Shown here: piece by piece, positions 25,601-49,000 of the stretch
How the letters are laid out: each line of letters begins with the position of its first letter
Numbering within the stretch: the first letter of the stretch is position 1
Assembly: GCA_047967505.1 (NCBI GenBank)
Contig: CM106538.1
DNA from: Dipteris shenzhenensis
Taxonomy: Eukaryota
Direction: 5' to 3' (one strand)
Length of the DNA stretch: 64,000 bases
Program-made: the position numbers and the translations under genes
The notes under the pieces: generated by a model
Told to the model about the DNA's origin: nothing
The model's database searches: none
What the model saw: the letters and a program-made list of their open reading frames with translations, nothing else

Positions 25601-28600
25601 CTATTCACAGAGGGATTGCAATGAACTTGTGGAGGTTCAAGCTACATGTCCTCGTTGCCATTTTGCAGTTGAGACAGCTCAGCAATGCTTTCGGGGGTGT
25701 AGACATGCAAGGACGAAATCTGGAAGGGGCTTGCTAGGATCTTATGGACTTTCCATATATCACCCTTCTTCATGACTTAAGGCTCAGCTGCTTGGCTATC
25801 TCTTACGGGGCCTTAGGTCTCTTAAAGGGACATGATTCAGAAGTGGTTTTTTGTGTTCGTCGTCACGTAGTAGAGTCATGTTCTCTCCAAGATATCTCAT
25901 TCACTCCTTTCGAAGCTGCACATGATTCTGTAGACACTTCTTGGGAGATTCTGGCTAGTATTTCAGCATGGCATATTTAATGTGCAGAGGCATTGGATGG
26001 ATCCCAGGTTCATCCCTCTCAAACACTGGCCAGTATTTGGACTGATACTATACATACCTTGATGGCCATTTGGGTGAGCATGTAGGGGTCATCGAGAGCA
26101 GCCTCTCTAGGAGGAACACTTATTTCAAAGTATGGAGGGGATCTCCTGTATTCTCAGATCTTGCTTCAAGGTTGACATGGCATTTTCAGCCTCAACCCTG
26201 GTTATTTGCTATCTCTTTTTGAGCTTTGATTTCTTTCATGCATTTATTGCCATAATGTACTTCCGCATTAAGGTTGCTCCTGCGGTTTTCTTTCATACTT
26301 AATAGAAGTACTTTTTTTGCAAAAATACGCTCAACTTGACCAAATACAAGCGAATTGTAGGATCTTGTAGGTTTGGACAACATTGGTTCACTTCAGGTTT
26401 TTGGGGTGCCACATCACCCAAAACTGTGGGTGAGGGAAGGGGGCATTGTGTGTAAGCTCACACTTTTACTTTCATTTGTAATTCAGTTGAGCTGCTCATT
26501 GTGAACATCTTGCAAGATTGGACTTCAGCTGGTACCTTTCCTCTGTATCTTTATGGATTAGTGCCAAAATTCTGTGTTTTGGTTTATGCTCACTCAATGA
26601 TCTGGATGAATTGCTTGCTAGCCTTGAAGCTGGAGATCTCTACCTCATAAAGTGGATTGTGGTTTTCAAGAGCCCCTAAGAATGTCGAATTTATAAGTTA
26701 AGGATGAAGTTTGGTTCAAAATATCCCCTGTTCAGAGGACATTATTACATGAATCGCAATGACTTTCGTTTCCTTAACAGTACAAGGATATCGTTGGTAC
26801 GGACTACCTCTTTTTGACTACGCTTTCAAATGAATTTAATCACTTCATCTTGTTTATCTTGCTGAAGTCAAAATTTCACCCCAATTGCAATGGCCTAGGG
26901 ACTAACTTATCTTGTAGCTTCAAAATGTCATAATGTAGCTTGTATCTCTTGTGGCTGTTTGCCAGATCTCCAGATTTTTTAGACTCACGTAGCGAAACAA
27001 GTTTTTTTGAGTGTTTTATTTGAATCTGATTTGTTCTGCTTTATCTCTGATATAATAAAAAATTTGTAGGATTTAATGAGATTTTTATATTGTTTTCGAT
27101 AGATTGGTTGCTTTTCTAATGCATACTTTTTGGACGTTTTAGGCAGAGACTGTGGTGAATTTTGCTTTCGGCTGTTTGGTTGAAAGTACCAAACACAGCA
27201 GATGTGAAAATACAAACACAGTTTTTGAGCAGGTATGTGTAACAGGCATGCTGCCTTCTATGAGACTAGGCATATGTTTCCTTTGGACCTTATGTGAAGT
27301 GGCTGTGATGGAGCCTGCTGTGCTGTATGACAGGGAAAAAAAGTGTGCATGTTTCTTCAGAAAAGCATATAATCCTCCTTCCATCTCCCTCCTCATTCCC
27401 TCCTTCACGTGCTATGTCTGGAATCTCCCCGGCCTCAACCTCATCCTTCTGCGTCTGGCATCTCCTTCATTTGGATCATGGTGGCTCGTTTCTGATGGGA
27501 CGGGTTGTTTGCAGGGCTACTTGTTCGTCCTTTCAGCTCCACTCTTTTGTTTGAAGAAGGAAGCTGGATGATAGTTTAGATTCTGATGCATTAGATGCAA
27601 ACAAGGATCTTCAGAAAACTAATCGGATGAAGATTGATCCTTCTAGGCCAACAGATATGACGCTAGGTATGATGCCAACCATGAGATTACCTCACGTAGA
27701 GTGAGTGATCACGCAGAGTGAGTGATTCTTGAGCTGTAGTCTAGTATTTTGACAGTGGTGCTCCTAGACATATCACTTGTAGAAAGAATTTATTTGCTGA
27801 TTTACAGCCTGCTCTAGTGGGCAAGAGAGTGTCTTGCACCAACAATTATTCATATGTTCTGAAGGGAGTTGTTGGGGCCAATTTATGCATTCCAAAATAG
27901 GTTTTGGTTGGAAATGGCCAGATGCATGATTAAGGGGAAAAGACTGCCACATATTCTGCTTAATGTGTGCAACACAGACTTTGAACAAATGCCCAACCAA
28001 GGCTGAAAGTGCCACCTCAGTCCTGCTATAAACTTTGAGAAGAAGGCAGAGCCTCTCCATTCCCTAAGAAAAATATCCCTCCTAGAAGAGGCTGCTCGGG
28101 AGGAACCATGCACGGTCGCCCAATTGGCCATCAAAGTATGTATGGTATCAGTCCAGATACTAGCCATGGTGTGAGAGGTATGGACTTGAGATCTATCCAA
28201 TGCCATTGTGCATCTGGCTCTCTAGATATGCCATGCTGCAATACTCGCGAGTCTCCCGAGAGGTTAAAGGGAACATCATCTAGATAGCAATACTCAACTA
28301 AGTGTCATTGAACCGAGATAGCCCAATAAGAGTACTACCTCTCAAAGAAGACTTAGGGCCCCGAAAGAGAAAGCCAAGCCATTGAACCCCAGGTCATATA
28401 GCAATGGGAAGAATCAAATGTACTGAAGATCCTAGCAATCTCCTTCCAAAGAACTCTCATTTGTGTCAAAGGAGTCCATCAGAGGCAAATCTTTCTCTCA
28501 ACTTAGAGGGGTATTTTCGGCTAGTATTAATCCTATATGAGGATGACCTCATCATTACAAGGGATCATACGGCAATGATAAATTGACTCCTCAATAGATC

Positions 28601-31600
28601 TACAACGAGGACGAGTAGAGTCCGCCCCAAACTTGGACCTCCACAGATTCACTGGAATACCTCGAGGAATAGACAACCAAAAGAATAGAGATATTACATT
28701 CCTGAGGGATTTCTAGGGTCTTCTCCAAAAGTCTATCTGCAAGTCAACAGAATTATGAAAGTTCTCCCAATGAGGGGATTTGGAGGCTCTAGAACTCATC
28801 TGAAACTTCCTAGCATTACTTATAGTATAACAAAAGAAGGGGAGGCTCCTCTCTTGGTGCCCTGCATCAATCCCCTCCTGGATCCCATTGCAGGATCCCA
28901 CTGCAAGAACTTGATATAGCCAAATCCTCTAAGAATCCAAGAGATAAAGATGTGGGTTTGGATTTAGGTGCCACTCTAATCGTTGCCGTGCTCCATAAAC
29001 CCTATGATCGTGACATGCTAGAATGGAATGCCCAAGAGAATATCATCTGTCACCAAGGATCCTCTTGTGCTCCTCGAAAGGCTATGACCTGAAGTGGAAT
29101 GCCTGTCCTTGAGAAAGACCCCATCCAAGTAGAACAAAAACCGGCTTTCATCCCTATCCGCCCATCCTCGGGTAAGGCCACATCTATCTGTTGGATCCTC
29201 CCTACACTTCGTCTTAGTGGCTTACCATTTGCTGTTTACAGTCCTTTGGAAGCTTTTTGAAAGCCTTTTGGGATCCTACAGAGGAGGCAACATCAAATCT
29301 TTTTTTGCATCACTCCAGTTCTCTCCATCCCCAATCTTCCTACCATTTCTCATATGAATTGTAAATAGGGTCTTTGGATGCTAGGAAAGAGGATTTGTTT
29401 AGAAATGCTTTTCCAAGCACACGGTTGTGGATGGACTGGGAATGCAGAGCATCCCCACCCCTGTAAAACCTCCATCTAACAAATGTTAGACATCCTTCGC
29501 TCCATGAGATCTGATTTCCTATAGCAAAATGGTCTTTACCTTCCTTATCAAAATCTTACCATTGTTCAAATGTTCTGGTTCTCCAAATGGATAGGAGAGA
29601 ATTTGCTAAAACATCTCTTTATCATTCCTGAGATTTGCATGTGCCGTTCACTAAAGTATCTCTACCTCAATAGCATCACCGCATAGTACCTCTATCTCAT
29701 ACGTCTATGCATTATCTCTAACATCCTAGCATTGTGTACCCCTACTCAACAAAAAGTCAAAATTCCTATTTGTGTTAGTGTATATGGGTGGGGGAGTGGT
29801 GAAAAGGGGGGAGAGGTCAAGTTTTTTGCATTATTGAACGAAGGAGGTGGAATAAAGGGGCATGGAAAGGATTGGGACATGATCATTAAGTGAAAAGAAG
29901 AAAGGGGGCGGGAAGGCTATTTGTCAGCATCTGTGCCATGGTGCCATGCAAGAGTGGTAGGGGAAGGTCACCTTTATGGTACACAAACTCATACATGGGG
30001 CGTGGTTGGTGTGCTTGTGCATGGGTATGGTGGCCCTAGGCAGGCATGTATGGTTGTCTACTTTGTAATGCTTTGGATGCGTGGTGAAAGTGGCGATGAA
30101 GTCCACGATCGATGGCTCCCAATGCAGCATCACTAAGAAAAAAGCTGGAACAGAAATGCATTACAAATTAAATTAAGGACATACATGAAGCCTTACGAAG
30201 GGTTAACTGAGGAAGATGTGTGAACTAAAATGAAAACAAATAGGCTGGAACTATAGAAAAGCCATTATGCCTATGCTATTTGCAAACCCTCCGTATATTT
30301 GATCTATGTTGATGCTGTTACGTGATCTATTTCTTTGTAATAGCACTATGTGCTATCTGTACCTTTGTTTTTGGATTTCATGAGATAATGTTTATACTAC
30401 TCCCTCACTATGCTTAAGGTGAGCTTAACACTCCCTTTACCAAGATCTTTATCCTTAAGGCAATGACCCATTGAAACCTCACCATCCTATGTGTAGATGT
30501 TGAAATATATGATAGAGAAGCCTTAGCTCCTTAAGAAAGTACATTTGGAAGGCGATCACACAAAAACTTTTTGCAACTTGCATTGTTAATGTCAGTTGTT
30601 CTATTTCTATATGCTAGTTTTTTCCTTTTGTTTTTTTCGTTAAATTTAAAATTCACTTCGTTGGTGTCTTTGTGTTGGGGGGGTACAGTGTCCTCTACTA
30701 AATGTGAGCTATTGCCCACCCTCAGAAGCTAACAAAGAAGCAAACCAAAGCCTGGTGAGAGTTTTTGCCTCAGTTTCTTGTTTTGATTACAGCATTGTCC
30801 TTTACCCTTGTACATATTGAAGCTCTATGATCATGTTAACGACTTAACTATGCATATTTTAGTAGTCTTGATGCCAAAAATGAGTATAGTATTTTTGCCA
30901 AAAATGAGAATCATATTTTAGTAGTCTTGATGCCAAAAATAAGTATAATTATCTTATCTCAGGTGGTGCTTGCATACAATGCCCTAGGATGGAATCGCAC
31001 TGAATACATCCGCATTCCAGTAAGCTTTACTTAAAGCCTTTTTCTCATTTTGGAGAAGTCATACTAATCCACTTTATCAATCTGAAGAAATGGATTGTTT
31101 TGCCCTTGCACATTTTGGATGTTTGTTAGTGAGTTGGATCTAAAGAAGTGATATTGTAATTTCCTCGCCTGAAACAAGAAATACAAGTGGAGCATGATGT
31201 AGGGGAAGAAGGATGACTATGCAAGACATAACATTGCATGTCATGCCTTGAGTTGGTGGGAGGCGAGAGGCTTACCTCTGTTATAGAGCTTATTTATTGG
31301 AAATTGCAGACCAGCTGTCTCATGCAAGTACATGACTTTTGCATGCCATGGCGAGTTGGTGGAAGGCTACATGCTTTGCTCTGTTATAGAGCCTATGCAA
31401 ACAGTTTGAGTTAGCCAGTGGACTCGGGAGCTTATACATATCGGAGACACTTTTAAGCACATAATTGCTAATATTGTAAGTTCAATAATCAGGTCAAGCA
31501 AGTTTATGCTTAGATATGTCGGTAGTATTACATGTGGTTGTTTTCTGAGGCTGCACTCAAATGGGGCTATGTTGTATATTTATCCAAGGACTAGACCTTT

Positions 31601-34600
31601 GTGGTTTGGGAGCAAATCTAGGCGGGTGACAGCATTGTGAAAACGTGTATTGTACAAGCTCCATGCATATCAAGTGATGCTTCCTTACAGGAAACAGCTC
31701 TTCTTCAAAACCTGAGGTTGAGGTTTTGCTCTGCATCAAACTGTATCTTGGAAATCAAAATAATGTACAAATGGCTGGGTGAGAGCTTTGAAAGGGTGTT
31801 GAGAGTGAGCGTTCTATGGCATATCAACTTGGCATGCAATGGGTAAAATGCAAAAACAGAGGCCTTGAAGTGCATGGAGAATCTCATGGCTTACAAAATG
31901 CCTGCAGCATAAGTGGGGACGTATGGAGCTGGAGAGCCTGGGCAGTGAGGTGTGGGACTCCTTTCACGTGTCCAGTGGCATGAGTATTTTGTGTTTACCC
32001 GTGACATGGACACATAGCACCTCTCTAGGGGGAGCAGATTGGTGGATGAAATTTTGTGGAAGTCAAACAAAGGGTTCATGTGTTGGTGTAGGAAGAGTCA
32101 CTAATCAGTGGACTCTTTGGAAAACGAAAAAGAACCACAATTTTGAGTGTAAGTCAAAACATCGAGCGACCGCGTTCGAGCGAGTCTAGAGTTCGAGCGA
32201 TGCTTGTGATGAAAAAGGAGAGGAGTCATGAGGTGGGACTACGAACAGTGGTTTGATGAGCGAATTGTATGAGGGAAAGTTAAAGGATTTTAGAAAGGAA
32301 GCATAAAAATGGAATTTTGCTTTGTTTAAAACCATGGTTCCAATTCATTCTTTTAACACATTGATCATATGGAAACAGATTGCATTCTTGAAGTTTATTT
32401 TATTGAGAGGTGGACATGATTGAGAGGTGGACATGATTCCAGCAAGAAATCTCAATGATACCACATAGCATGACAAGTGGTTATTTCCATGCACTCAAAT
32501 GGCTTAATATGCATTTGAAGTTTATAACTCCATGGTGTTCTATAGTGCGGGTTTCCCAATGGAGTCCAAAACAGCAACATACTCTTTAACACAAAATGAA
32601 GAGTACCTTTTAATACAATATAAATCCATTCTTTCATTCAATCCATGTCATTTTACATTATGCAATGCTAATATGGCTTTGGGGCCTACAATATACTCAA
32701 TACTCCAAAAGGCACAAAGATTCACAAAACACTTTAACCACTATCTTCACACTCATCATCTACAAAAGGGCTACAAATGCGTGAACATTGTGTTCCAAGT
32801 TGATCAAACCGCTTGTCCTTCGCCATGGCTCTAGCCATTCCTTCAGCATATGTAGGCAAAGCACTACAGGGACAAAATTAATAGAGAGTAAGTTGAAACT
32901 GCATAACATTGACCACAGAGTAACAAGATAACGAAGACAAGTCAACCATTCCACCATGACAACGAAAATCAAACGTCTAACTTCAAGGATGACAATCTTC
33001 TCTGAAAATGTAATTTTCAAGCACAAAATATAAAAAGTGTACCACTAGCCAATGTAAAGCATGACAATAGGAAAGCAAAGTGTCTCACTAGTCATCAAAG
33101 GGATTATAAGTGGGATTTGAAGAATATTCATCCTCCCCCATATCCTTGTCATCCCTATGAGGTGTCTTTGCTAGGGATGCATGCACTAGTGGCAGCACAT
33201 ATGTATCCACCATGATTGTATCCACATCAAATGAATAACAACATCTTCCACTAGCCTGGCATGCCCTCATGAGAGGGCATGTGCCACATCCCATCTCCAG
33301 AACCAGACCTCGTGGCACACATATCAAAGCCAAAATCATAGAGACAAATCCTAAGGAGCGCTCAAGAGCACCCCTAGCACCCTCAAGCTGCGAGCTGGAA
33401 GATGAGGCACCACGAGTCCGCTCTGTCTCAGGCATGTAGTGGGTCCACATGTCATCGCTCACTCGCACCCCATGCATATCAAACAGAGAACGGCTCTCGG
33501 TCTTGAAAATGGGTGTGGAGGCTCCATTACGACATGCAAATACCAGCATGGAAGTACGAATCTACATAAAAATATTGAAATCAGCTTCATTGTTCACTTT
33601 TTCAATTGCGAAAGACTTTCAAAAAAGTAGATGAAGCATATACCGGCATGTCCTGCCCTGATTGTTTTACGAAGCCGCACTCATTCTTGTCCAACACCAT
33701 TACTCTTCTTGCTATCTGAAGGTCTTCGACTTTAACATACCTCTCCATCCATGTCAAGCAAGGGCCTGAAAATTCGTTGCATTAGTTCAAATCATGGTGG
33801 AAAGCTTAACAAATGCACATATACATATCAAGAATCCTACTAACATCTCACACCACCTGCAATGGGACAAAGCATGGCAAGCCATCCATTGTCTCCTATG
33901 GTGGCTGCTGCTGTGGCCAAACCATACTTCACATGGTCCTCAGAAAGAATATTCCAAGAAGGTAATGGATTACTGACACCCAAGTTCTGTCCTGTGGGAA
34001 AGTCTAGGAAAATAAAATCTGCTGCCCATTTAACTTTTCTCCCCTTTTTCTTGTATTCCATAGAAGGGTCACGTGCGGACAAAAAGAACTCATGGATCTT
34101 AGCATACATATCATTTTTTCTAGCGCATGCAAAGTCCTGGCCCATCAAAATGTAGTCTCCCACAGAGCATTCATACGTAGCCAACCCTCCATAACGCATA
34201 GCATGTTCTAGCGATAGTGGTGGACAGAAGATAAATGGAGTGACAACTTTCACTATCTTTTTTCCTGTTGACAAAAACAATCCATTGCTGAACATATGCA
34301 AGAAGCTCATCCCAAGTCTTATCCACTTCAAATAAAAAAACTCAAAGATTAATGGAATTGAAATAATACCATTTATCCCATCACCAACATCAATAGAAGG
34401 CTCCGCAGGCGGTGGAGATGGTGTTCTCTCCACATCCTTGTCTGTCAAGAAAAAAAGGACAAACGAGCTCAAAATACTTTTGGTTTACAACTAGTTTGAC
34501 TGACCCTACCTTCCTTGTAGCATGTTTCAAACACACCAAATAAACCAACCTTCCTTGCAGTCTTTCTTCTCTATTTTTCGTGTTGTTCTTCTTGGATTAT

Positions 34601-37600
34601 CCTGATCCTTGCTTATTTCTATGGTCTTTTTTGTTGTAGAATATTGCTTGTACAAATCAAGCTCTCGTGTAAGCACATTACCACCTGAAAAATCTAACCA
34701 CCAAGGGCAATTGACAAGCTCCCACTGTGAGTGTCCATGCATGGACTTAGGATACATACAAGTAGTTGGATTGGCCATCTCTGTCCAACCCTTGCAATGT
34801 CTTGGAAGCTCATCGATCTTGCCCTCATTCTTCAAACATGAGAGATATCTGAGCAATTCCCAATGGTAACAGTGGTTAGAATTATGAGGCAAACAATGAA
34901 TGGAAAAGAATACATGTTGGAAGAATCGACAAGGTGTTCACCTAAAGACGACTCGATGAGCTGCCTGATCCAGTTCTGTCATCTTGGTAGCTACCTTCCC
35001 CTTCCCAACACCACTGAGTTCACTAAACTCTCTAATTTTCAAAGAGGTAAACATACACTTCCTTCCCTCCAATTTGATGTCATCAAAATACTGACCAAGA
35101 CTGTACTCAGAAGGTAGGGCAAACAACCGCCCAATGCTTTTAAGCTCCTCAAGCACACCAATGGCATGAGTTTCAATCTTCTCCAAGAAAATTTCTCGGG
35201 CCAGCCACCTGTAATAGCAATATGCCATCGCATTGGAATAACAAAGCACAAGAAGTAATATTATGATTGCCGAAATAATAGCACAAAAAAAGAAGACTCA
35301 ATTGGCTTATGCTCGGTATGGAATATCTGAAGGAGGCATGTGATACATATTCCGCATGATTGTGCTAGCCTCCAACAAAGACAGGTACTGAATTTTCCTC
35401 TCCAATTTCAATGGTGCAAGGGCAATGCACTTAATCTTTTCAAGAGTGATAACCTTCTCCGCCGCATCAAAGTTCAAAGAAAATAGCTTGGCTTTCCAAA
35501 CATCCCCTAGTTGGGGTTCAAGACAATTGAGCACCTACAAAACATTACTGGGCATGATTTCTCAAACTTTTTAAATTGACCAATGTACTTGAACCATAAA
35601 CCAAGAGTGAAGTTACCCGTCCCATCCGATCGGATATTTTTCTTTGCACTGCATCTATCTCCTTCTTCTCTGCCGCTGCTCTCTCCTCTACTGGAACTAC
35701 AGATTTTATCCTCTCTAGAGCTCTCTTGACATCAGTGTTATATTCAACCTGCAAGACATAATGAAAGCAACCAAAATGCACCTTTTAGCATTGACAGACA
35801 ATCAATGAGGCTTTTCATAACAATAAAATCTTAGGGTGAATAGAAATATTAGTATCACCTGGAATACAAGACGTGCCAAATACCCTCTGCTCAAAGGGTA
35901 CCAACCAGCATTCCCCTTAACCTCCTTGGTTCTGGCATTGTTAATTGCCTTGCGCTCTTGTGAGGACAAGGAGTTCATGAAAGCTTGGGCATCGCACTCA
36001 CAAATGTTGTTGGCATTTATGAGCACATTCCTCAAGCTAGGCTTGATCACAGCATGCTCATTCAATCTACAAAGAAAAAATTTATGAGTTCTTCTTCCCA
36101 AAATAGAACGCAGAGTAGAAAAAAACAGTACTTTTAAACAAATCTTACGAGTTCATGCGCTGCAAACTTGCCAAAAGAGAAATTTCAGTTGTCTTTCGTG
36201 GATCAATCAAGGTGCACATCACCCTAATATGCCGTGCTTTGGTCTCTCTATATGATTCCTCAATCACAGCCATCCAAGCCATGGTTCTATGGTTTCCTTC
36301 CCACACATAGAACATCTTGTTAGATAGGTATAGCAAATCGGGCTTTAATGCAAGTTCCTTCTCAAATACTTCTTCAACTTCTCGCCACATTGGTGACCAA
36401 GTCTGTCTGATCTCTGATGTAACCTCTGTCTCCTCTCCACTCCCAGTGCAAACAGAAACTATAAATGCACCCTTCTCAGGGAGATATCCCTCATACTGGA
36501 AAGCACTTTTAAGTGCAGCCACATCACTTCTCAAACCCCTAACCCTGGCATATGTAAGAAGTCTACACAAGGGCAACCTAGGACACTCATCTGAACTGAG
36601 AATCCTGCATCTTGAAATAACATCACCCCCACTAACAAGATCCAAGGAAATATCTTCCACCACTGAGTCCATCTCATCATCCACAACATCTGCCATGTCT
36701 TCTGTGCTAGCAGGAACATCCATCTCTGATTTATCCCCACCTTGATCTCCCGCCTCGAGTTCCTCTTGAACCTTTCTGGTCCTCTTTCCTCCCTTTTTTT
36801 TAGGTGGTGTCCGGGATTTCTCTTTGCCCCTCCTTCTCATCTTGGTAGGGCTCACACTTTCTCCTGTTTCCATCTGCACACACGAAGCTCAGTTATGTTA
36901 GTCACATAGTATAATAACTCGGGTATACCAGTAACATCTCATAGTAACATCCATGTTAATTCGTAAGTATACTAACTATATGTGAGTAAAGTAAGTAGAC
37001 TACTGGCTAGTCACTATTTTGTCATTGTGGATTTGTTAGTATTGTGACATCTAACACTAGTCTGATATATCATAACTACATATGTAAGTATAACTAGTTA
37101 TAGTCCACTAACATATACGTAACCACTAGAATATACTTACCTCCAAGAAATATACAAACATACAACTAACATATACACAGCTCAGACTAGTTAATAGACT
37201 AGTAAAAGTTTACTAACATATAACTAGTTGTAGCTAAAATGTACTAAGTTTACCAAAAAACAGCAAACAAAAGAGATTTTGAAGTGGCTTCTAGCTCCCC
37301 ATTTCATGGGCTGCCCCATTTCATGGCCTGCTCCCAGGGGGCAAAGCATGCTGGGCTGCTGGGCTGCCTCATTTCATGGGTCCATGGGCTGCTCATGAGA
37401 GCCCCATGAAATGGGGCAAACCATGCTCCCAGGGGGCCGCAAAATCGCGGTCCTCTGGGAGCATGCTTTGCCCCATTTCATGGGGCTCTCATGAGCAGCC
37501 CATAGTCCACTAACATATACGTAACCACTAGTTATAGTCCACTAACATATACATAACCACTAACATATACGTACTATAGATATATCATAACTAGTTATAG

Positions 37601-40041
37601 TCCACTAACATATACGTAACCACTAGAATATACTTACCTCCAAGAAATATACAAACATACAACTAACATATACACAGCTCACACTAGTTAATAGACTAGT
37701 AAAAGTTTACTAACATATAAATAGTTGTAGCTAAAATGTACTAAGTTTACCAAAAAACAGCAAACAAAAGAGATTTTGAAGTGGCTTCTAGCTCCCCATT
37801 TCATGGGCTGCCCCATTTCATGGCCTGGGAGGGCCTGCTCCCAGGGGGCAAAGCATGCTGGGCTGCTGGGCTGCCTCATTTCATGGGCCCAAGGGCTGCT
37901 CATGAGAGCCCCATGAAATGGGGCAAAGCATGCTCCCAGGGGGCTGCGATATCGCGGCCCCCTGGGAGCATGCTTTGCCCCATTTCATGGGGCTCTCATG
38001 AGCAGCCCATAGTCCACTAACATATACGTAACCACTAGTTATAGTCCACTAACATATACATAACCACTAACATATACGTACTATAGATATATCATAACTA
38101 GTTATAGTCCACTAACATATACGTAACCACTAGAATATACTTACCTCCAAGAAATATACAAACATACAACTAACATATACACAGCTCACACTAGTTAATA
38201 GACTAGTAAAAGTTTACTAACATATAAATAGTTGTAGCTAAAATGTACTAAGTTTACCAAAAAACAGCAAACAAAAGAGATTTTGAAGTGGCTTCTAGCT
38301 CCCCATTTCATGGGCTGCCCCATTTCATGGCCTGGGAGGGCCTGCTCCCAGGGGGCAAAGCATGCTGGGCTGCTGGGCTGCCTCATTTCATGGGCCCAAG
38401 GGCTGCTCATGAGAGCCCCATGAAATGGGGCAAAGCATGCTCCCAGGGGGCCGCGATATCGCGGCCCCCTGGGAGCATGCTTTGCCCCATTTCATGGGGC
38501 TCTCATGAGCAGCCCATAGGGCTCTCAAGAGCATGCTTTGCCCCATATTATGGGCTGCTAGGATGCTCATGAGAGCCCCATGAAATGGGGCAGAGCATGC
38601 TCCCTAGGGGCCGCGATATCGTGGCCCCTTGGGAGCTTGCTCTGCCCCATTTCATGGGGCTCTCATGAGCAGGGGGCAGCATGTTGGGATGCTCTTGAGA
38701 GCCCCATGAAATAGGGCAAAGCATGCCCCTTGGGAGCATGCTTTGCCCCATTTCATGGGGCTCTCATGAGCAGCCCATAGGGCTCTCAAGAGCATGCTTT
38801 GCCCCATATTATGGGCTGCTAGGATGCTCTTGAGAGCCCCATGAAATGGGGCAGAGCATGCTCCCAAGGAGCCGCGATATCGCGGCCCCTTGGGAGCATG
38901 CTCTGCCCCATTTCATGGGGCTCTCATGAGCAGGGGGCTGCATGCTGGGATGCTCTTGAGAGCCCCATGAAATAGGGCAGAGCATGCTCCCAGGGGGCCG
39001 CGATATCGCGGCCCCCTGGGAGCATGCTTTGCCCCATTTCATAGGGCTCTCATGACCAGTCCCATGCCCCATTTCTGGGGCTCTCATGAGCAGTCCCATG
39101 CCCCATTTCTGGGGCATGGGACTGCTCATGAGAGCCCCATGAAATGGGGCAAAGCATGCTCCCAGGGGGCCGCATATCGCGGCCCCCTGGGAGCATGCTT
39201 TGCCCCATTTCATGGGCTGCTGGGCTACTCATGATGGCCCCATGAAATGGGCTGCTGGGCTGCTCATGATAGCCATAGCCGGGGTTCTGAGAGAAAATTC
39301 TCAGTCCCGAGAAAATTCTCTCTATGAGGACGTGGTGATGCCAAGCCGATCAAAATGGCCTTCTGGACCTCAGAAACAGGGGAGCATTATTAGCAGACAG
39401 ATTTGATGGGCTATATATATATAACAGGCTACAGCTATTTAAAAAGGGCTCCAAGCTGAGCTGGAATTGGAGCTGGTTGATGTAGAGATGACAACTGCCA
39501 CTGCCACCTTCCAACTTTACTTCTATCTCTCTCTCTCACAGCAAATTTTATTAGCAAGCCCTCTTCACTATCCATCCCCGTACTAGTTTTCATGGCTACA
39601 AATAGCTCAAAGCTCGGTTGTTACAAAGTTCAAACAGTTCAAAGCTCGGCTGTTGGGCACTTGATGTGTAGCTGTCTGCCCGTTTTCTTCACTAACCTTA
39701 ACCTACTTTTGCAGCCAGTTTTTATCGTCTACAAACAGTCGATAGGGTAGGTCAGCTTAGTGCAAACTTTTAGCGAGGCCTCTTCACCAACCTGCCAAAA
39801 CCGTCATTCTCACCTGTTGGGCACTTTGATGTAGCGTCCACTCTCTCTGCTTAGCAGATTTGAGCAAGTCCTCTTAATTAACCCAAACCCACTTTTGCAG
39901 CCAGGTTTGATGGGCGAGAGTCACTGAAAAGCTTGAAGCTCTTCAGCTCCAGCAGCAACTTTTACTATAACCTGCAAGGCTAGAATCACTTAAAAACTTC
40001 AAGCTCACCTGTTGGGCACTTGATGTGGAGGTGGGAACTGC

Positions 40042-40083
<42 letters not shown>

Positions 40084-43000
40084 AAAACACACACACACAC
40101 ATTCACAGCCTGGGTACGTTATTAGTTAGCATACGCAACCTTTGGTGTCTCGACTCTGCTTCCTTTGCTGCCCCTCCTTCCCCTGTTTCTCCTTGCATGA
40201 AGAGGACGGCTAGCGATCCTGGATACTTCTCTAGTGGCCATGCTTTGAGCTTCTCCTCTGCAAAATTGGATTGATTCAGAGCAAAAGATTGGTTGAGATG
40301 CCATACCTCTGCCCTCGAGCTCTCCAACAGCATCATCAGCAGCAGAAGGCTGCAGAAGATGATGATGATCGTCTTCCTCCTGTAATCCTTCCTAGCCATA
40401 GCCCTTTGAGTTGATATTCTTGCAAGAATGAATAGAGTTGGCTCAGCCTGAGAGAAAATCGGGAGAAAATCGTATAGAACCTTATTGTGGAGCCTGAGAC
40501 TGCAGTATCATTTTGAAAAAGCAACAAGTTACGGGTACACAAGGGGAGCTATGCATCCAATTGAAGGAAGGAAGGGAGACCACAAGCGAGGTTGGCAGGG
40601 ATGGCAAAGAAGCAGAGGCGACACTCAAGCGAGGTTGGCAGGGATGGCAAAGAAGCAGAGGCGACACTCAGCTTTTTCGATTCAAATTTTCCGCCTTGGA
40701 GACCGAAATGGAGAAGCAAACTGCAATTTTACTGCAAAGCTTTGAAGACTTACGCCTGCTCGAAAATTTTGCCTCGAAGAACGGAACGAAGCTCCCAGCA
40801 GTTCCCAGTGCGAGAAATCATACCATCCGGTCTCTTTACCCCTCCGGCCTCTTCCTCCTTGCTTAGGTTACAGAGGTTTTTTACATCTACCCTGCTACTC
40901 ATGATAGCCCCATGAAATGGGGCAAAGCATGCTCCCAGGGGGCCGCGATATCGCGGCCCCCTGGGAGCATGCTTTGCCCCATTTCATGGGGCTGCTGGGC
41001 TACTCTCCCCAACCCTATGCAACTCACACCCCCAGCCCTATGCATCTCACCCTCTGCCTCTCCCCCTCATCCTGCTGTTGCTCTCTCCTTTGCAACTACT
41101 CTACCTCACAGCTCTTCCCTCTTGCATCTGCTCTCGCCCCCTTCATGCTGTACCCATAGTTGCTTTCCTTCTTGGGCCTCATCGAGAGATGATGAGCTAC
41201 AACATCAGAGAACCGGATTGGTGGACACTCTCCCCTTCACTTTATCTTTCCGATTTGGACCCTTCCACATGCCCTGAGAAGCGAAAAAACATACAAGGGA
41301 AAAACAAAACCCAAAGACAAGAAGGACAAGGAGACATGAAAGGGTACTGACAGTAAAACCAACTGAACATGAGAAAGCCCAGCAGCCCCATGAAATGGGG
41401 CAAAGCATGCTCCCAGGGGGCCGCGATATCGCGGCCCCCTGGGAGCATGCTTTGCCCCATTTCATGGGGCTCTCATGAGCAGTTGGGGGATCTGTTTGCA
41501 AGAACTTGTCCTCAGGTTTAGGCAGATATTGACATAAGTTTACCTTCCTCATACGCGAGTGCAAGCAAAACGAAAAGAACAGAGAATTTGAAAGCAAACG
41601 ACCTAAGTTTACCTTCCTCATAGGCGAACTTGAGTACACTCTAGCATAACTTGGGGGATCTGTTTGCAAGAACTTGTCCTCAGGTTTAGGCAGAGATTTG
41701 ACATAAGTTTACCTTCCTCATACGCGAGTGCAAGCAAAACGAAAAGAACAGAGAATTTGAAAGCAAACGACCTAAGTTTACCTTCCTCATACGCGAACTT
41801 GAGTGCACTCTAGCATGACCTCTTCAATGTTTTCTTGCTCTGCCCAAGCTTCTGCTCATCTTTTCTTACGTGCGTTGACAAAGGAATGCAGAGAACAAAA
41901 GGAAGCTATGAGAATATAAACTTTGTAAATGTAGAATCTGTAGCAACTACTGGGGGATACAAGATCAAGCTACTTACACACCGCAAGCAATGTATCATAT
42001 ATAGTTGCTGTAACTCCGCTGATCTTCGGCAAACGTGTAGTCGAGAATTACATGCAGAGTCTCCCCTAAAGGATCGGTCTTTCTACTCTTCAATATCTTT
42101 CTACTCTCGAGTCTCAAATGTGCTGTTGAACTTGAATCGAGAGGCAAGCCGACCGCCCAAAACAAGAATCCGAAAGATTACAATTGGAATCAACAATTTT
42201 GCCAGTCCAAACGAAGCAACGAAGCAACGAAGGTCGGCCAGAATTGAGACGGGGAAGGGAAGCGGAGTGAGAATCCGTGGGCGGCTTTAATCTGTCACAA
42301 CAATTTACGAGCAAAGAGACAACTTTATTTGGGCTTGGAGGAAGTTGTTGGATGCGAGAGATGATGAGATAAGGCCCGTGAACACATGCAAAGCAAAGGA
42401 AAGTGTGTGGGATGCCCATAAATGCAAGTATTAACATACAACAAAGAGTCATCACCTCTGCCAAGATTGTCCTTGGTGATATTGGTAAATTGTCCTTGGT
42501 GTCGATTGGTGATGTAGGAGGTGATGGCGAAGGAGATGGTTAGGAGGAGGGGAAGGAGGTGTAGGAGAGGAGAGAGGAGAGAGGAGGGGAAGGAGGTGTA
42601 GGAGAGGAGAGAGGTGTAGGATTGGGTTTAGGGAACTAACACTATCACTTGTTGACACCTCACTTGTCATCATTAAGGGATTGGTTTAGTTTTGAATGGC
42701 TGAATTTGTTGACACCTCACTTGCCGTCATTTAGGCTACTGCCATCATTTGTGAGCATCAACGACTTGCCATCATTTAGGGTAATGCCTCCTTGTGAGCA
42801 TTTATACGTGATCTTCGCACATCCCATGTAATGATAAGATGTCCTGTTCAAAGATTTATTGGATGGCGGCTATGTGGTGTCCTGTTCAAAGATTTATTGG
42901 ATGGCGGCCACCAAACCTTGGATACTCTGCTGCGTCATTGATTTGGATACTCTATTGAAACTCCTTCTTGGATGCTCAGCTGAGTGTCCTTCTTTCCCGT

Positions 43001-46000
43001 CATTTGGGTCTCCTTCATGGATACTCAGCTGAATCTCCTTCTAGCTAGTCATTCGTGTCTCCTTCTTTGATACTCTGTTGAATCTCCTTCCTGCCAGTCA
43101 TCCTAGCTCTTAGACCACTTGGATTTCTTTTCGCTTGCTATCCATACTCGTATCTAACTATGCCATCTTTCCTTGTGATCAAGCATGGAGCTCAAACTTT
43201 GGATATTAGATATGACACAAGTATCTGCGAGGTTTCTCTTTTGGAGCTGAGAGATTTCTTTCAACTGCAAAACAACAACATTCTTCTCCAAGAGGAGATT
43301 GGAATAGAGGATGTTGGTGTCATTCATCGACCCATTGAGCTTGAAGAAGGAGAGCTTGGGTTCAAGATAGAAGCAAAGTCGGAATGTGTTTTTTCTATCA
43401 TCACAGAGCAAAGGCATGCACCTGTTTTGACATGTAAGGAGACTGTAAGTGTCATAACCTTGCTCAAACAGCTCCCACTTAGTAGTGCTTTGCATGTTGC
43501 CTTTGCCTCTGCTCAAACTATAGAGCAAGTATCAGAGTTGCCACAAAACTATAATGGTTATGTTTTGTTTGAGCTCCCACCTTGTCTTGAAGGGTCTGCT
43601 ATGTTTGGAATGGACCAAAAGAATGATGGTCATGCTTGGACATTGTACTCTACTAGCTCGCAAGAGTCATTCAACGGGATGGTTAGAATAAGTAGGTGTA
43701 CAGGCTACTTGAGGTGTTGCAATTTGGATTGTCCATATATGGAACGGACTGGTCTCTACAATGAGACACAATGGAGGGGAAAACTAAGAAAAATATGTCC
43801 TGTGGGTCCAGTTGAAAGGGAATGTGGTTCCTTGCTTTGCATTCATTGTTGTCAGATTCCTATCTGTGTTTCGCAATGTAAAGCTTATATATACTACTGC
43901 ATTCCACATGATCGTGAACATACTACAAGATGTGCCATTCATGTGGGAGTACATGAGCATCCAATTGCTGAGGGAAGTAGTCGAGGTAAATGGAGAAAAG
44001 TGGATGAAATGGTATCTGACCGTGCTAGAAAGAACCCTGCACTCTCTTGCAAAAATATCGAGGTGGATGTTGCCAAAGATATTGTTATGGAAATGATGCT
44101 TGGTGGCAAAGAGGAAGCCATTGAGGAGATGGATGAAGCTGGCTTCCATGCAGTTCTTGACACAATAACACCATTGTCACAAAGGAGGAGGCTTCAAAGA
44201 GCTGTGCAATCATCTAGACATGGATCAGAACGATTCGATTGTGGCCTGGATTCACTGTTGGAGTTGAAACGTCGATGTAGATACTCTTTTTTGCAAAGTG
44301 TCCTTTTCCCAGGACAACTATCAGCTAATCAACAACCTCATGTCTTTAAGATGTCAACTATTGGTCCAGGTTCTGGGCTTGACTTGGTGAATAGGATGAG
44401 GCCAAGTGGTAACTTGGGTTTTCAATGGTTGCACTTTGACCATGTTCATCGGGTGAAAGGATGGTCCACCATGGGTGCCCATGTGTATGACCCTTTCATC
44501 AGGGAGCTTCTCACCATTGCATTATGTGAATTTAAGCTTGAAGATGCTGGTGCACAAGTAAAGTTCTGGCAACTGATGAATGAGCAAATGTTGAAGAATG
44601 GATTCCCTTTGCCTGAATTCAGAGGGTTCATGGCAGATGGTGCGGGAGCGAATTGGCTTGGAGTTAGAACAGTATATAATGGTGGACCGGACAATGTCAT
44701 GGAAGGTAAAGAGAGAACATGTGGTTTTCACTGGGAGATGAGCATGGTAGAGCATACTAGAAGATGCATCAGGGATCCATTTCAGGAAGAGCATAAGCAT
44801 CTGTGTAGGAATTGGAGAAGAGCAACATCAGACAGTAGTGCAAGAATTTGTAAGGAGGCAATAAAGGAATTTTGGACACCTACTCATGTTAAGGAGGATG
44901 AGTTGTCTGCCCTTGAGACATGGTTGGCATGGTGGGATGTGCGGGTTTCCCAGTGGGGAGGTTCATTCATGCAACAACATAAGGACACTGGATTTGTGCC
45001 GTCTGTGAATTTAGCTGAGACCAAGCACTCTAGCATGAGGGCTGCTCATGGGTATGCTAAATACATAAGCCTATATGAGGCCACCGCAACAGATTTGGCA
45101 ATGTCTGTGCTTCAAAGTGCACACTACAAAGCTTACATGGAAGGCAAACACTTGGGAACAGGACCTGCATTGGAGAAGCTGAGGGAGAGGATTTTGATTT
45201 GGGATTCTGGCAATGTGTCAACAAAGAGACTTGTTGATGTTGCCCATGGTGTTATGGAAGAGGCTGGCCTTCACACACCTGAAATGAAAAGGCCCACAAT
45301 GGAGAAAACTCAAATTAGAAGGAGAAGAGGTTCTGCCACTCCAACTACAATTAAGGAACATGACAGTCATAGGCCAGAGTATATTTATGTCTCTACTAAG
45401 CAACCAATGGGAGGGAGGAGACCTCCCAATAGAATTGTAAATGGATATGATATTAGCTGCAAGGAGAGTGTTGTGCATGAGACAAATTGGGTTATCAGAA
45501 GAACAGAGCCAAGAAGTGTGGTGACATGCTTTGGATTCATTTCTGAATCTAAGTCTCGTTGTGGAGCACTCATAAATACATTGGGTCGAAGTGCAACTGA
45601 GGGTGTACCTGCACCTTGCTTCAAGGGGAGAAGACAACATCCTAATGGTATCAAAGAACAGTTTGTGTGGTTTTGCAATACCTCTGTTGCCCATACGTGG
45701 TGTGTTGATCAGTCTATACTTGGTGTGCCTGGCCACTCCCCAGGGGTGTGGAAGGTGACCGTCGGGACTTCCATAAAGCAACATGAAAAGGATCAATTGA
45801 AGGAGGCAGGTTTTGTGCTTGAGGAGGATGAGAGTTTTCATGTGCAAGGACCTAACTTACAGAGGACTACAACACCATTGAGTCACGATCGGGCCAGTAG
45901 AAGGGATAACAGGATAGTGAGATGGAGATCCAAGCTAAGTAAGGAGTTTCAAGACAGGATTCAAAAAGCTCAATGTTTGATTGCAGAAGTGGTGCAAGAG

Positions 46001-49000
46001 AAAATTATCTGTCCTAATGAAATGCATCTGTTCCATGTGCGAACAGAAAGTTCTATTGCAAAGGGCCTTACTTACACCGTGACAATATCAAAGTTTCCAC
46101 GGTGTTCTTGCAAGGACTTCATTCAACGAGATGCAAAGAAAGGGATGTATATTCCATGCAAACATATGTACTTTGTCTTCATTGGTGTTTTGCAATTGAG
46201 TGACAAAGTGCATCAGTTTATGCACCAGGCAGCTCTTACAAAAGTTGAATTGTTTCAAGCTCTTAGTTCTCGCAGAAACCAGCCAAGTGTGTCACATCCA
46301 CTTGGTTGAACTTTGGGACTATTTTGTATAAGCTTACCTTTGTAGTTGTTAAGGAAACCAAGCAACTGTTTGCCACATGCTTGGTTGATTTTTGAGATTG
46401 GGTTTATCTTTGAAAAACCATTTTGTACACTTGGCATATCTATTGTGTCAATTTGGGACATATACAAGTATATTAAGCTCTCAAGCGGCTTCGGAATGTA
46501 TTTGGGGAAGCTTTGGATTATCTTTGGGAACTTATGGAAGCATATTGTATGCTCAAGCTATTTTGGATAATGCTACTTAATTAATGTTATTTGGCCGATG
46601 CTGTTAGACTTGTTAGAAATTTATGCTTGTAGTATTAGTTAGATGCTTAAAGGTTTCCTGTTTCCTATCTTTAAGAAAGTATTGAATATATCATAAATTG
46701 AATTGCTCTATTGAGGACATTGCTACCTTTCTTTTTTTTTGAATGCTAAGAAATAATTTTTTCATTTTCCAAATTATAAGGGTGCCGTTTTATTTCTATG
46801 TAAGAACATATTTTATTCAAAGTCAAATGACACTTTTGCAACATAAATATTTGCATTGAAATGTGGAAATAAATAGCCATGTTCGCTCGAACCTTCACCT
46901 CGCTCGAACGCAGTTGCTCGAACTTTGGTAATCCTCCAATTTTGAGTGCCTTGTCCAAGTAAGTAGGTGGTTGACCAAGTTAATAGTTTCAGCCTTGGCT
47001 TACCAGATAAAAGGGCAACCATGAAGAACGATGGGTTGGGAGCCAAAGGTGATTTCATGGGAGGAGGGAAGTCTTTGCACCTGATGTGTCAAGTTCAGAT
47101 ATCCTTTACACATTGGTTAAATGAGAGTGCCCTAAATACGTACTTATCACCAACTCCTGTCAATTACCCCTACTATGGGATGGTTTCGGCCTTGGCTCAC
47201 CAGATAAAAGGGCAAGATGAAGAACAATGGGTTGGGAACTGCAGGCGATTTCATAGGAGGGAAGGCTTTTGCACCTGATGTGTCAGATTACGATATCCCT
47301 TACACATTGGTTAAATGTGAGTGCCCTAAATATGTACTACTATCACCAACCCCTGTCTTCTCGACCTAGGAGAGCACCTATCATGAGGGCGTGGGGCCGT
47401 GGAGGATTCCTCTTTTCACACACACCCACATACCCCTCATTGCATTTTAAGACTCCTAATTGGGATTTTCTCATTTTCACCGTATGGAATGTTGTTGTTC
47501 ACAGGAGATACTCCTTGTTTTTTTTGTATTTACCTTATGCTTAACCTTTCTTTCACAAAAGTGTTTTGTTTTTTTTGAGGGGGGGGGGGGGTTGTGGCGG
47601 CATTTACCTGTACTGTCCCTTGTGTTCAAGCCCCCAAATCAGTGTGTCCACATCACTGACCCAAAATCCTGTGGTTTGTGCCAGTTAATAGATGCTCCTA
47701 CAACCAGACAGATGGTCTCGTGAGCTGCCCTGAAAGATGCAGGTTCCCGACAGAAGTCTCAAGAGATACAGTTGTATCATCCGCAAGCACTGTCAAGAAT
47801 CATTTCATGTGGGTGCACTTCTGATGCTCCTAGGAGCTTTGTGGAAGCAAGTCACTGACAAGCTTGCAATGATCATACAACTTCTTGTTGGCCTCAAAAA
47901 GGCATTGCACCCGTATTTGCCCTCTTGTCTGGAATGGTGACTTTTCCATTTGATTGTTCACTTCTCTTTTCTTTTGGTGTTTAACCTTTTTGGCATGCTT
48001 GTGCTCCATCTGTAATACTCCATGCCTGTGATTTCTTAATGTTGACAGCATTGCAAGCTTGCATCTGCGTTTTTTATTGTGATTGCCTGATCCTTGTTTG
48101 AGTCTTTCACAGACTTTCAAGAATTATTGATAATTGGTGTCTCAACGAAAGGGTTGCATCTTCATTTGGAGACCCTCCCACTTTCAGTCCCATCACCCTC
48201 ATGCTGAGTACTGTGAATGGGTTTCAACCTTCTCTGATGGTTGCTGAGATGGCTGTTTGCTCCCTTGTGAAACAAATCCCACACAGGATGAGTTTTCCTT
48301 GGCTTGGTTTCCAACTTCGTGTTGCACCTCCTCAACATTCTTGGTTGGGCACAGTACCACCTCTTAATAGTTTTCCAGGTCTCTGATCCTAATAAGGTAA
48401 GCTCCTTATTGAGCTTCTCATTTTCCAAAAGATAACTTGAGATCAATACTTGCCTCTATCGCCCTGTTCTGTTTCGTCTTTGCATCGTAAATTTCAAAAA
48501 TATAACTTGTCGTCCCTCACTTGAGAGCATCAACCTTCTAAGTTACTCTTCAATGCTACACGAGATTCTTGTTTTTTGCCGCAGAAGCTCTATGACTTGT
48601 CCATAAATTGCCTAGCAGTACCTATGTGCAGGGATAGTCTTTGCCACCGCTCTCTAGAGTATCTTAAGGAGAGGATTGGGGACAGCCATGATCTCAACAG
48701 GAAGGTGGCTGGGTTTGCAGAAACTTGTGGATGAAAGAGAGTTGCTTAGCTATGGGTGAAGAGGGAGTCGAGGTAGAAAGGGAGGTGGATCAAGGGAGAA
48801 GAGCAAATGGGGAGTAAGAGAGGTGGTTCCAGGACTACATAGTCACATGCCATGCATTTCGAAAAATAATCATCATATTGGTCAGATGGTTCTGTTCTGG
48901 GAGTCAGTAGCTATGAAGTATGCATCTTAACATGTAGCCCTTAATCAAGTAGACAGAGTTGTTGAGCTTGTTGATTTGTGTTATAAGATTTCTAGATACT

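Follow-up and report, generated by a model that had tools for sequence, protein, structure and literature searches.

The question raised by this locus is what kind of gene occupies positions 35859-36873 of a 64,000-nucleotide (nt) stretch of Dipteris shenzhenensis DNA (GCA_047967505.1, contig CM106538.1; the whole stretch is called the window below), where a first-pass annotation, made from the letters alone, had proposed a ParB/Sulfiredoxin (Srx)-like domain at the N-terminus of an intron-rich transposon gene. Our analysis indicates that this span probably corresponds to exons 1 and 2 of a 976-codon accessory gene of a 14.8-kb transposon of the Mutator-like element (MULE)/SWIM type, and that the encoded protein consists of a leader resembling a nuclear localization signal (NLS), a ParB/Srx fold, a middle region and a permuted methylase fold. 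Phage and plasmid fusions of ParB with a methylase have the same domain order, as do algal transposon accessory proteins, and it is the C-terminal methyltransferase-like domain, missed by the first-pass annotation, that puts the protein in a new light, as a fusion of the ParB-methylase type.

The N-terminal ParB/Srx-like domain

The peptide strings quoted by the first-pass annotation were all found on the minus strand, with LQRMNSLNE spanning intron 1, and the span that it had delimited coincides exactly with exon 1 (36873-36149), the 82-nt intron 1 and exon 2 (36066-35859). The basic then acidic N-terminus that it had described was also seen in the residue composition, with 14 lysine and arginine residues within residues 1-35 and 18 aspartate and glutamate residues within residues 36-90. 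The 155-residue domain that follows was used as query against 1.84 billion representative sequences and gave 307 homologs at an expect value (E) <=1e-3, 142 at <=1e-10 and 13 at <=1e-30, numbers which indicate that the domain is a real and widespread family, beyond chance. The EGNHR motif proved conserved among these homologs: in the rows of the phmmer alignment covering each column, Gly was found in 127/136, Asn in 134/136, His in 126/135 and Arg in 111/135, and the preceding residue was Asp in 93/135 and Glu in 34/135, so that the motif reads [DE]GNHR. In an alignment of 49 sequences, P14, L15, F83 and N107 were invariant, C16, V24, R25, W72, W76, G106, H108 and W113 were conserved at 90% or more, and a conserved LQRxN closes the domain.

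The AlphaFold model built from this 49-sequence alignment had a predicted local distance difference test score (pLDDT) of 93.4 and a predicted template modelling (TM) score of 0.88, with the order strand, helix, strand, helical insertion (residues ~55-98), strand, GNHR helix, strand, helix. A Foldseek search of the PDB with this model listed, among ranks 1-43, 26 rows which were Noc, Srx, ParB, KorB, PadC, pNOB8 ParB, SbnI or Atu1540, the last two being, as we take it, members of the ParB/Srx superfamily; the probability reached 0.99 with TM scores of 0.43-0.45, and the ParB matches included structures bound to cytidine diphosphate (CDP) and cytidine triphosphate (CTP). Among the 50 rows listed from the viral models of BFVD, 21 were named as ParB, Spo0J or Sulfiredoxin-type proteins (probability up to 1.00, TM score up to 0.49), 2 were named methylases, rank 3 being a phage protein named DNA methylase, and 18 were nameless. 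One neighbour cluster of the domain in the ESM Atlas, at rank 14, carried PF02195 in 11% of its members. On account of the structure prediction, the fold searches and the position of [DE]GNHR at a strand-helix junction, we consider it very likely that the domain has the ParB/Srx fold with the homologous motif. Sulfiredoxins, whose motif is GCHR with a catalytic Cys, share with the domain the fold (target-normalised TM score 0.45-0.54) and a G-x-H-R motif; however, the Cys position is occupied here by Asn (134/136 rows), and the protein is therefore not a sulfiredoxin, its domain being moreover far larger and fused to other parts.

The C-terminal methyltransferase-like domain and the gene structure

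The gene was read on the minus strand from 36873 to 33088, with exon boundaries set by hand reading, by tblastn of fern homologs (P0010/P0062) on the window and by a frame check, the reading frame of exon 8 being fixed by tblastn with homologs. This model comprises 10 exons and 9 introns, and gives 976 codons with zero internal stops. The nine introns counted by the first-pass annotation were thereby recovered in the frame check, 8 of them with GT-AG ends and intron 4, in the window copy, with ATAAGC..AG. Contigs from two public runs (X1 and X2), which are 88-99% like the window and come from runs of an unrecorded kind, RNA being a guess only, have joints that fall exactly on introns 1, 3, 4, 7 and 9 and no more than 1 nt off on intron 6; the exon 5/6 junction fits a loose contig end, and intron 2 was without an exact contig match. 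Since the contigs join there, close relatives of the gene are spliced at the junctions predicted here, that of the AT-donor intron 4 among them. In a single contig of run X1, exon 7 runs straight into exon 9 (window 33766-34369), so that exon 8 (408 nt, in frame) is skipped and with it the motif IV site; additional letters between the two exons are possible.

In the C-terminal part of the protein, motif IV is encoded by exon 8 and lies upstream of a motif-I-like loop encoded by exon 10, which is the permuted order of beta-class amino-methylases. The window exons gave weak matches to Methyltransf_23 and Methyltransf_25, with E of 0.059 and 0.24, and PF01555 (N6_N4_Mtase) was found at the C-terminal end of 3 of the 5 proteins scanned, with E between 5e-5 and 9e-6, all three being liverwort homologs. 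The fold was modelled for the fern homolog P0151 from 19 aligned rows, the window's exons being among them, and window exons 8-10 align to this homolog. The first Foldseek match of the P0151 model was CcrM (3.2e-11), followed by M1.HpyAVI, M.BceJIV, M.MboIIA, M.PvuII, M.RsrI and the rotifer N4CMT; there were 182 matches with E<=1e-3, and the target-normalised TM score for M1.HpyAVI was 0.68-0.75. Like all these enzymes, the predicted domain has a permuted Rossmann fold in which motif IV comes ahead of motif I, and the modelling makes a permuted beta-class N6/N4 DNA-methyltransferase fold well supported for the C-terminus.

The middle region of ~450 residues (exons 2-7) gave no match to any known family in the Pfam scan. 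A Cys/Trp-rich stretch in exon 6 (34550-34848), HCKGW...CMYP...W.L..CPWW.D, which matches no family, is common to fern and liverwort homologs; it could be a zinc or DNA-binding module. Many paralogs were found per fern and liverwort genome, and a profile search for longer relatives retrieved 5 proteins only, from fern and liverwort. When 20 homologs were looked up, 13 had names, all of them hypothetical proteins (Adiantum capillus-veneris, A. nelumboides, Riccia sorocarpa), and some liverwort fragments are labelled 'Trimethylguanosine synthase' in UniRef, which we regard as an automatic label. In one fern gene model, P0064, the ParB-like region is fused to a NIF/FCP1-type phosphatase domain (PF03031, E 2.4e-12), and in another, P0021, to a retrotransposon gag; both are probably merged gene models. 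The ESM Atlas cluster nearest to the N-terminal domain (0.95, 169 shared features) carried PF12520 (DUF3723) in 31% of its members, and a second neighbour cluster belongs to Cnidaria. PF12520 itself matched none of the family members scanned by Pfam. DUF3723 is a conserved cargo family of the Starship giant transposons of fungi, and PMC9156397 lists its predicted function as unknown.

The transposon carrying the gene

The gene lies head-to-head with an intronless open reading frame (ORF) coding for a transposase-like protein, within an element bounded by inverted GTTCGAGCGA termini and a direct repeat of 12 bp; these features, together with the divergent transposase found also in 4 metagenome loci, bear out the transposon origin given in the annotation. 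The transposase matched Pfam SWIM with E 3.2e-5, over the cut-off of that family, and PF10551 MULE gave no Pfam match; its ESM Atlas neighbour clusters carried MULE in 44-86% of members together with SWIM, which we take as a lead only. A D..D..CxxH..E pattern was read in it by eye, and its 3 homologs in the database showed 47-49% identity. Three copies of GTTCGAGCGA stand in each of 32160-32200 and 46883-46923, in opposite orientations; 6 hits were found against 0.81 expected, one of them within exon 8, and over their outermost ~12-16 nt the two ends match poorly. A shared word as long as the direct repeat, CAATTTTGAGTG, arises in 1 of 2000 shuffles; the target-site duplications of Mutator-like elements measure ~9-11 bp. 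The element at 32150-46936 is, in all probability, a Mutator-like (MULE/SWIM-type) DNA transposon of 14.8 kb; its target duplication is intact, and it is apparently young.

Between the two divergent genes stands an array of palindromic units, in which CCGCGATATCGCGG was found at 8 sites with 2 mismatches or fewer, where 0.01 would be expected. At least 8 near-perfect palindromes of ~100-130 nt were seen in this array (37376-41487), with GCCGCGATATCGCGGC at their centre and many repeats of the sub-motif CCCCATTTCATGG. The palindromic units are candidate protein-binding sites.

A pattern scan of metagenome contigs gave 140 relatives, from which 80 loci were kept, and the upstream side was tested in the 11 loci whose upstream flank measures 8 kb or more, among which two pairs are near-duplicate; a metagenome scan with a single protein had found nothing. 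In four loci out of these 11 (L035, L039, L071, L074), a homologous transposase was present upstream on the opposite strand. A scan of the 80 loci with a hidden Markov model of the methylase part detected the motif IV block in 7 ORFs and the motif I block in none, and regular expressions retrieved almost nothing. When close-spaced palindromes of 30 nt or more were sought strictly between the genes, none was found in 4 related loci, and a looser search in 2 loci (L039, L074) revealed intergenic repeat arrays with short palindromic cores. These are tandem arrays, with 136-nt units at L039:7400-8650 and ~250-nt units at L074:7880-9720, located between the transposase and the ParB-like gene; their palindromic cores (e.g. 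CATATGCATCGATGCATATG) are unlike those of the window in sequence, the architecture being common and the sequence not.

Elsewhere in the window, the long ORFs at 3447-7953 (plus strand) and 15084-18375 (minus strand, split into several frames) resemble by eye the gag-pol of Ty3/Gypsy-type elements, with protease, reverse transcriptase, RNase H and integrase. ORF fragments for endonuclease and reverse transcriptase of the non-LTR (long interspersed nuclear element-like, LINE-like) type, LTR standing for long terminal repeat, lie at 51896-59154 (minus strand), with similar stretches at 20000-29000, in several copies, and it is because of these copies that long inverted and direct matches occur between the flanks of the window.

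Table 1 Features of the ParB-like gene and of its transposon in the window (positions on the 64,000-nt stretch).
Feature	Position	Strand	Basis or remark
Left copy of 12-bp direct repeat CAATTTTGAGTG (target-site duplication)	32138..32149	+	shuffle test
Left terminus with GTTCGAGCGA repeats	32150..32200	+	repeat search
Exon 10, end of methyltransferase-like domain; coding 33561-33091, then stop	33088..33561	-	tblastn, alignment, contig joints, frame check
Motif-I-like loop (LEMGCGTC), downstream of motif IV	33277..33300	-	weak Methyltransf_23/25 matches; alignment; exon 10
Exon 9	33644..33765	-	tblastn, contig joints, frame check
Exon 8, first half of methyltransferase-like domain	33857..34264	-	tblastn, alignment, frame check; contig joint over intron 7
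DFPTG in place of catalytic motif IV, which is DPPY in canonical N6/N4 methylases	33990..34004	-	alignment, exon 8
Exon 7	34370..34441	-	contig joints, frame check
Exon 6, with conserved CPWW motif	34550..34848	-	tblastn, frame check
Exon 5	34942..35208	-	tblastn, frame check; loose contig end at 34942 runs on into exon 6 sequence
Intron 4, non-canonical AT donor (ATAAGC..AG)	35209..35310	-	frame check; contig joints
Exon 4	35311..35534	-	homologs run on to ...DIPYRA; contig joint 35208->35311 (run X2)
Exon 3	35617..35748	-	tblastn, frame check; contig joint over intron 3 (run X1)
Exon 2	35859..36066	-	tblastn with P0010/P0062; frame check
Intron 1	between exons 1 and 2	-	82 nt, GT..AG
Exon 1, with start codon, basic/acidic N-terminus and ParB/Srx-like domain	36149..36873	-	ORF reading; ends at GTAAGA donor; contig joint 36066->36149 (run X2)
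155-residue ParB/Srx-fold domain (query); last base is the intron-1 donor codon	36148..36612	-	AlphaFold2, Foldseek, homologs
EGNHR motif (position like ParB box II and Srx GCHR)	36286..36300	-	alignment; between strand 101-105 and helix 107-120
Basic NLS-like stretch (RRRGKEK...), acidic tract onward to ~36610	36770..36873	-	residue composition; putative nuclear import
Array of palindromic units (~100-130 nt each) with CCGCGATATCGCGG at the centre	37376..41487	.	between the divergent genes
SWIM/MULE-like transposase ORF, 1049 residues, intronless	43160..46309	+	Pfam SWIM, ESM Atlas neighbours, homologs
Right terminus, GTTCGAGCGA repeats inverted	46883..46936	-	repeat search
Right copy of 12-bp direct repeat CAATTTTGAGTG	46937..46948	+	shuffle test

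Alternative explanations and comparison with known systems

Several results weigh against a ParB-methylase-type accessory protein of the transposon, and they have to be set beside the other explanations of the locus. For the N-terminal domain, all the Foldseek E-values lay between 0.008 and 0.1 in the PDB and BFVD, none being <=0.001, and the TM scores, 0.40-0.49 for the top-ranked matches, never reached 0.5; PF02195 (ParB_N) matched 0/144 family members (49 at E<=1 and 95 further ones at E<=0.1); no Pfam family, PF02195 included, recognised the domain in the window's own exons; and the family profile, run against PDB sequences, retrieved no ParB, only a spurious match to eL24. The ParB/Srx domain of the first-pass annotation was thus sustained as a fold and did not hold as a profile match. 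An hhalign comparison of the family profile with the single sequence of phage P1 ParB was likewise empty; PF02195 itself was without match on the phage P1 ParB record, and an E. coli chromosome searched for canonical ParB sequences yielded a single match, under the threshold. One of the 49 scanned members matched DndB, at E 0.066. Such results would be expected if a small alpha/beta domain resembled ParB/Srx by chance only, the N-terminal domain being a lineage-specific fold of other origin; but two independent libraries gave the same superfamily at nearly all top ranks, the motif stands at the homologous structural position, the fusion partner is typical of ParB-methylase proteins and one ESM Atlas neighbour cluster contains PF02195, and we consider this explanation very improbable. 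If the fold is accepted, the ParB/Srx domain might itself be the working part, a putative CTP- or adenosine triphosphate (ATP)-gated DNA clamp or nuclease aiding transposition or the segregation of excised DNA, with the methylase part as a DNA-binding scaffold. The nearest solved folds indeed include ParB bound to CDP or CTP and Srx bound to ATP, and GNHR and the terminal LQRxN resemble what we take to be ParB boxes II and III; the predicted fold and a G-x-x-R at the strand-helix junction are shared with the ParB, Noc and KorB CTPase clamps. The motif of these clamps is GERRxR, however, and here it is GNHR and not GERR, the domain has a helical insertion of ~45 residues (55-98) with the conserved W72, W76 and F83, and no helix-turn-helix or C-terminal dimerisation domain of the ParB type is evident, exons 2-7 being without Pfam match. 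We hold this explanation to be unlikely.

An active DNA amino-methyltransferase, writing N6-methyladenine (6mA) or N4-methylcytosine (4mC) on the element in the manner of the phage and plasmid fusions, with D-x-P-T-G as a tolerated variant of motif IV, agrees with the well-supported beta-class fold predicted for the C-terminus, with the motif-I-like loop followed by an acidic residue, and with the role proposed for algal ParB-methylase accessory proteins in PMC12477816. In the 15-row alignment of motif IV, comprising ferns, liverwort and the window, the Asp and Pro were kept in 15/15 rows, and two rows had DVPF, with an aromatic residue. But the motif was D-x-P-[TSIF]-[GR] in every row and never (D/N/S)PP(Y/F/W), 13/15 rows were without an aromatic residue at position 4, the glycine loop varied between rows (GCGTC, GAGTG, GARTR, AGGWG) and was degenerate in some copies, and the distant metagenome relatives had DLPTG, DCPVG and DIPEN. 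The PF01555 scores of 23.7-26.2 bits were also under the curated cut-off of 26.7, no PF01555 match was found in the window exons, in fern proteins or in 10 long homologs, and the profile of the C-terminal domain, run against the PDB, gave only matches at the level of motif I (E 0.12). The model itself is that of P0151 and not of the window's own protein, with 20-32% identity to the window exons, and its whole-chain pLDDT was 65.6, the core (residues ~125-400) being mostly at 76-95. From the alignments, the fold and the D..P core appear to be under constraint and canonical catalysis is doubtful; because the tetrapeptide is D-x-P-T-G and not DPPY, we put real methyl transfer at somewhat short of an even chance, and a non-catalytic role, as reader or regulator, is at least as likely. 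The active enzyme writing marks on the element is for us a tentative proposal that we would not expect to hold. A host or domesticated gene lying merely beside the transposase would account for the nine introns, whereas the transposase is intronless; against this stand the terminal inverted repeats and the target-site duplication that enclose the gene, its many paralogs per fern and liverwort genome and the same divergent pairing in 4 unrelated loci, which leave this reading most improbable, even though 7 of the 11 loci with long flanks showed no transposase match at E<=1e-4. With regard to the window copy, the AT donor of intron 4 means that it may not make the full protein: intron 4 may be spliced as a rare AT-AG intron, a cryptic GT at 35388 may serve as donor and lead to an in-frame product of 950 residues, or the gene may be freshly disabled.

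The accessory gene of ParB-methylase type has counterparts in other organisms. PMC12477816 describes, for Sola1-1_Ec32 of Ectocarpus, a 1104-residue protein with ParB-like and N4C/N6A-methylase parts, encoded opposite the transposase, and reports ParB-like plus methylase accessory proteins for green and red algal transposons too; PMC4738411 notes phage-derived methylases linked to ParB in algae and in chytrids. In our literature search, such a gene was not found described for ferns, liverworts, land plants or Mutator-type elements, although the supplements of papers may hold more. As ParB-plus-methylase accessory genes are already reported for algal transposons, we rate the present gene as a divergent land-plant variant of this kind. 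Compared with the published description, it is likewise transposon-borne, on the strand opposite to the transposase, of ~1000 residues and with ParB-like and amino-methylase modules; it differs by its land plant host, by a MULE/SWIM-like transposase in place of Sola1 or EnSpm, by two domains which both stay under the Pfam thresholds and by the D-x-P-T-G motif IV. The phage and plasmid fusions of PF02195 and PF01555 have the same domain order and, according to the models, both folds, with a phage DNA methylase at rank 3 for one domain and CcrM-type enzymes at the top for the other, but the present protein has in addition a middle region of ~450 residues, an NLS-like leader and nine introns, and is without DPPY and without significant sequence similarity to them. 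From the beta-class amino-methyltransferases it is separated by a degenerate catalytic tetrapeptide and glycine loop and by PF01555 matches that are sub-threshold and limited to liverwort homologs. By their own thresholds, the protein stands outside PF02195 and PF01555, and a CTPase clamp function is a prediction from the modelled fold. Second genes are known in Mutator-type elements, e.g. mudrB of MuDR, which is also a helper gene within the element and divergent from the transposase; a relation in sequence or fold is not expected.

As an accessory protein of the transposon, the product would enter the nucleus via its basic leader and would bind the DNA of its own element, for which the intergenic repeat arrays or the GTTCGAGCGA repeats in subterminal position are the candidate sites. 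A switch that binds nucleotides might then be provided by the ParB/Srx module, and a unit that binds S-adenosylmethionine and DNA, and would mark or shield the element, by the methylase-like module. A wider proposal can be formulated, in which seed-free plants host a large ParB-methylase-type family invisible to Pfam, Mutator-like elements carry proteins that bind their own palindromic arrays in a bidirectional control region and place or read 6mA or 4mC or shield the element from host silencing, and the ParB-like module is remotely related to the N-terminal part of fungal DUF3723 proteins; taken as a whole, we regard it as a long shot.

Little is understood of the accessory genes that eukaryotic DNA transposons carry, and the algal cases are only briefly mentioned in print. 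The combination of a ParB-type switch with an amino-methylase fold on a transposon suggests a possible way, other than cytosine-5 methylation, by which elements mark or guard their own DNA, and with the present gene this theme would reach land plants and Mutator-like elements as well. The gene belongs to a family of more than 300 sequences defined by [DE]GNHR and D-x-P-T-G, which standard annotation leaves as hypothetical proteins, and it bears on whether plants carry element-directed 6mA or 4mC. If the relation to DUF3723 were true, modules of the ParB type would recur as accessories of eukaryotic DNA transposons in different kingdoms.

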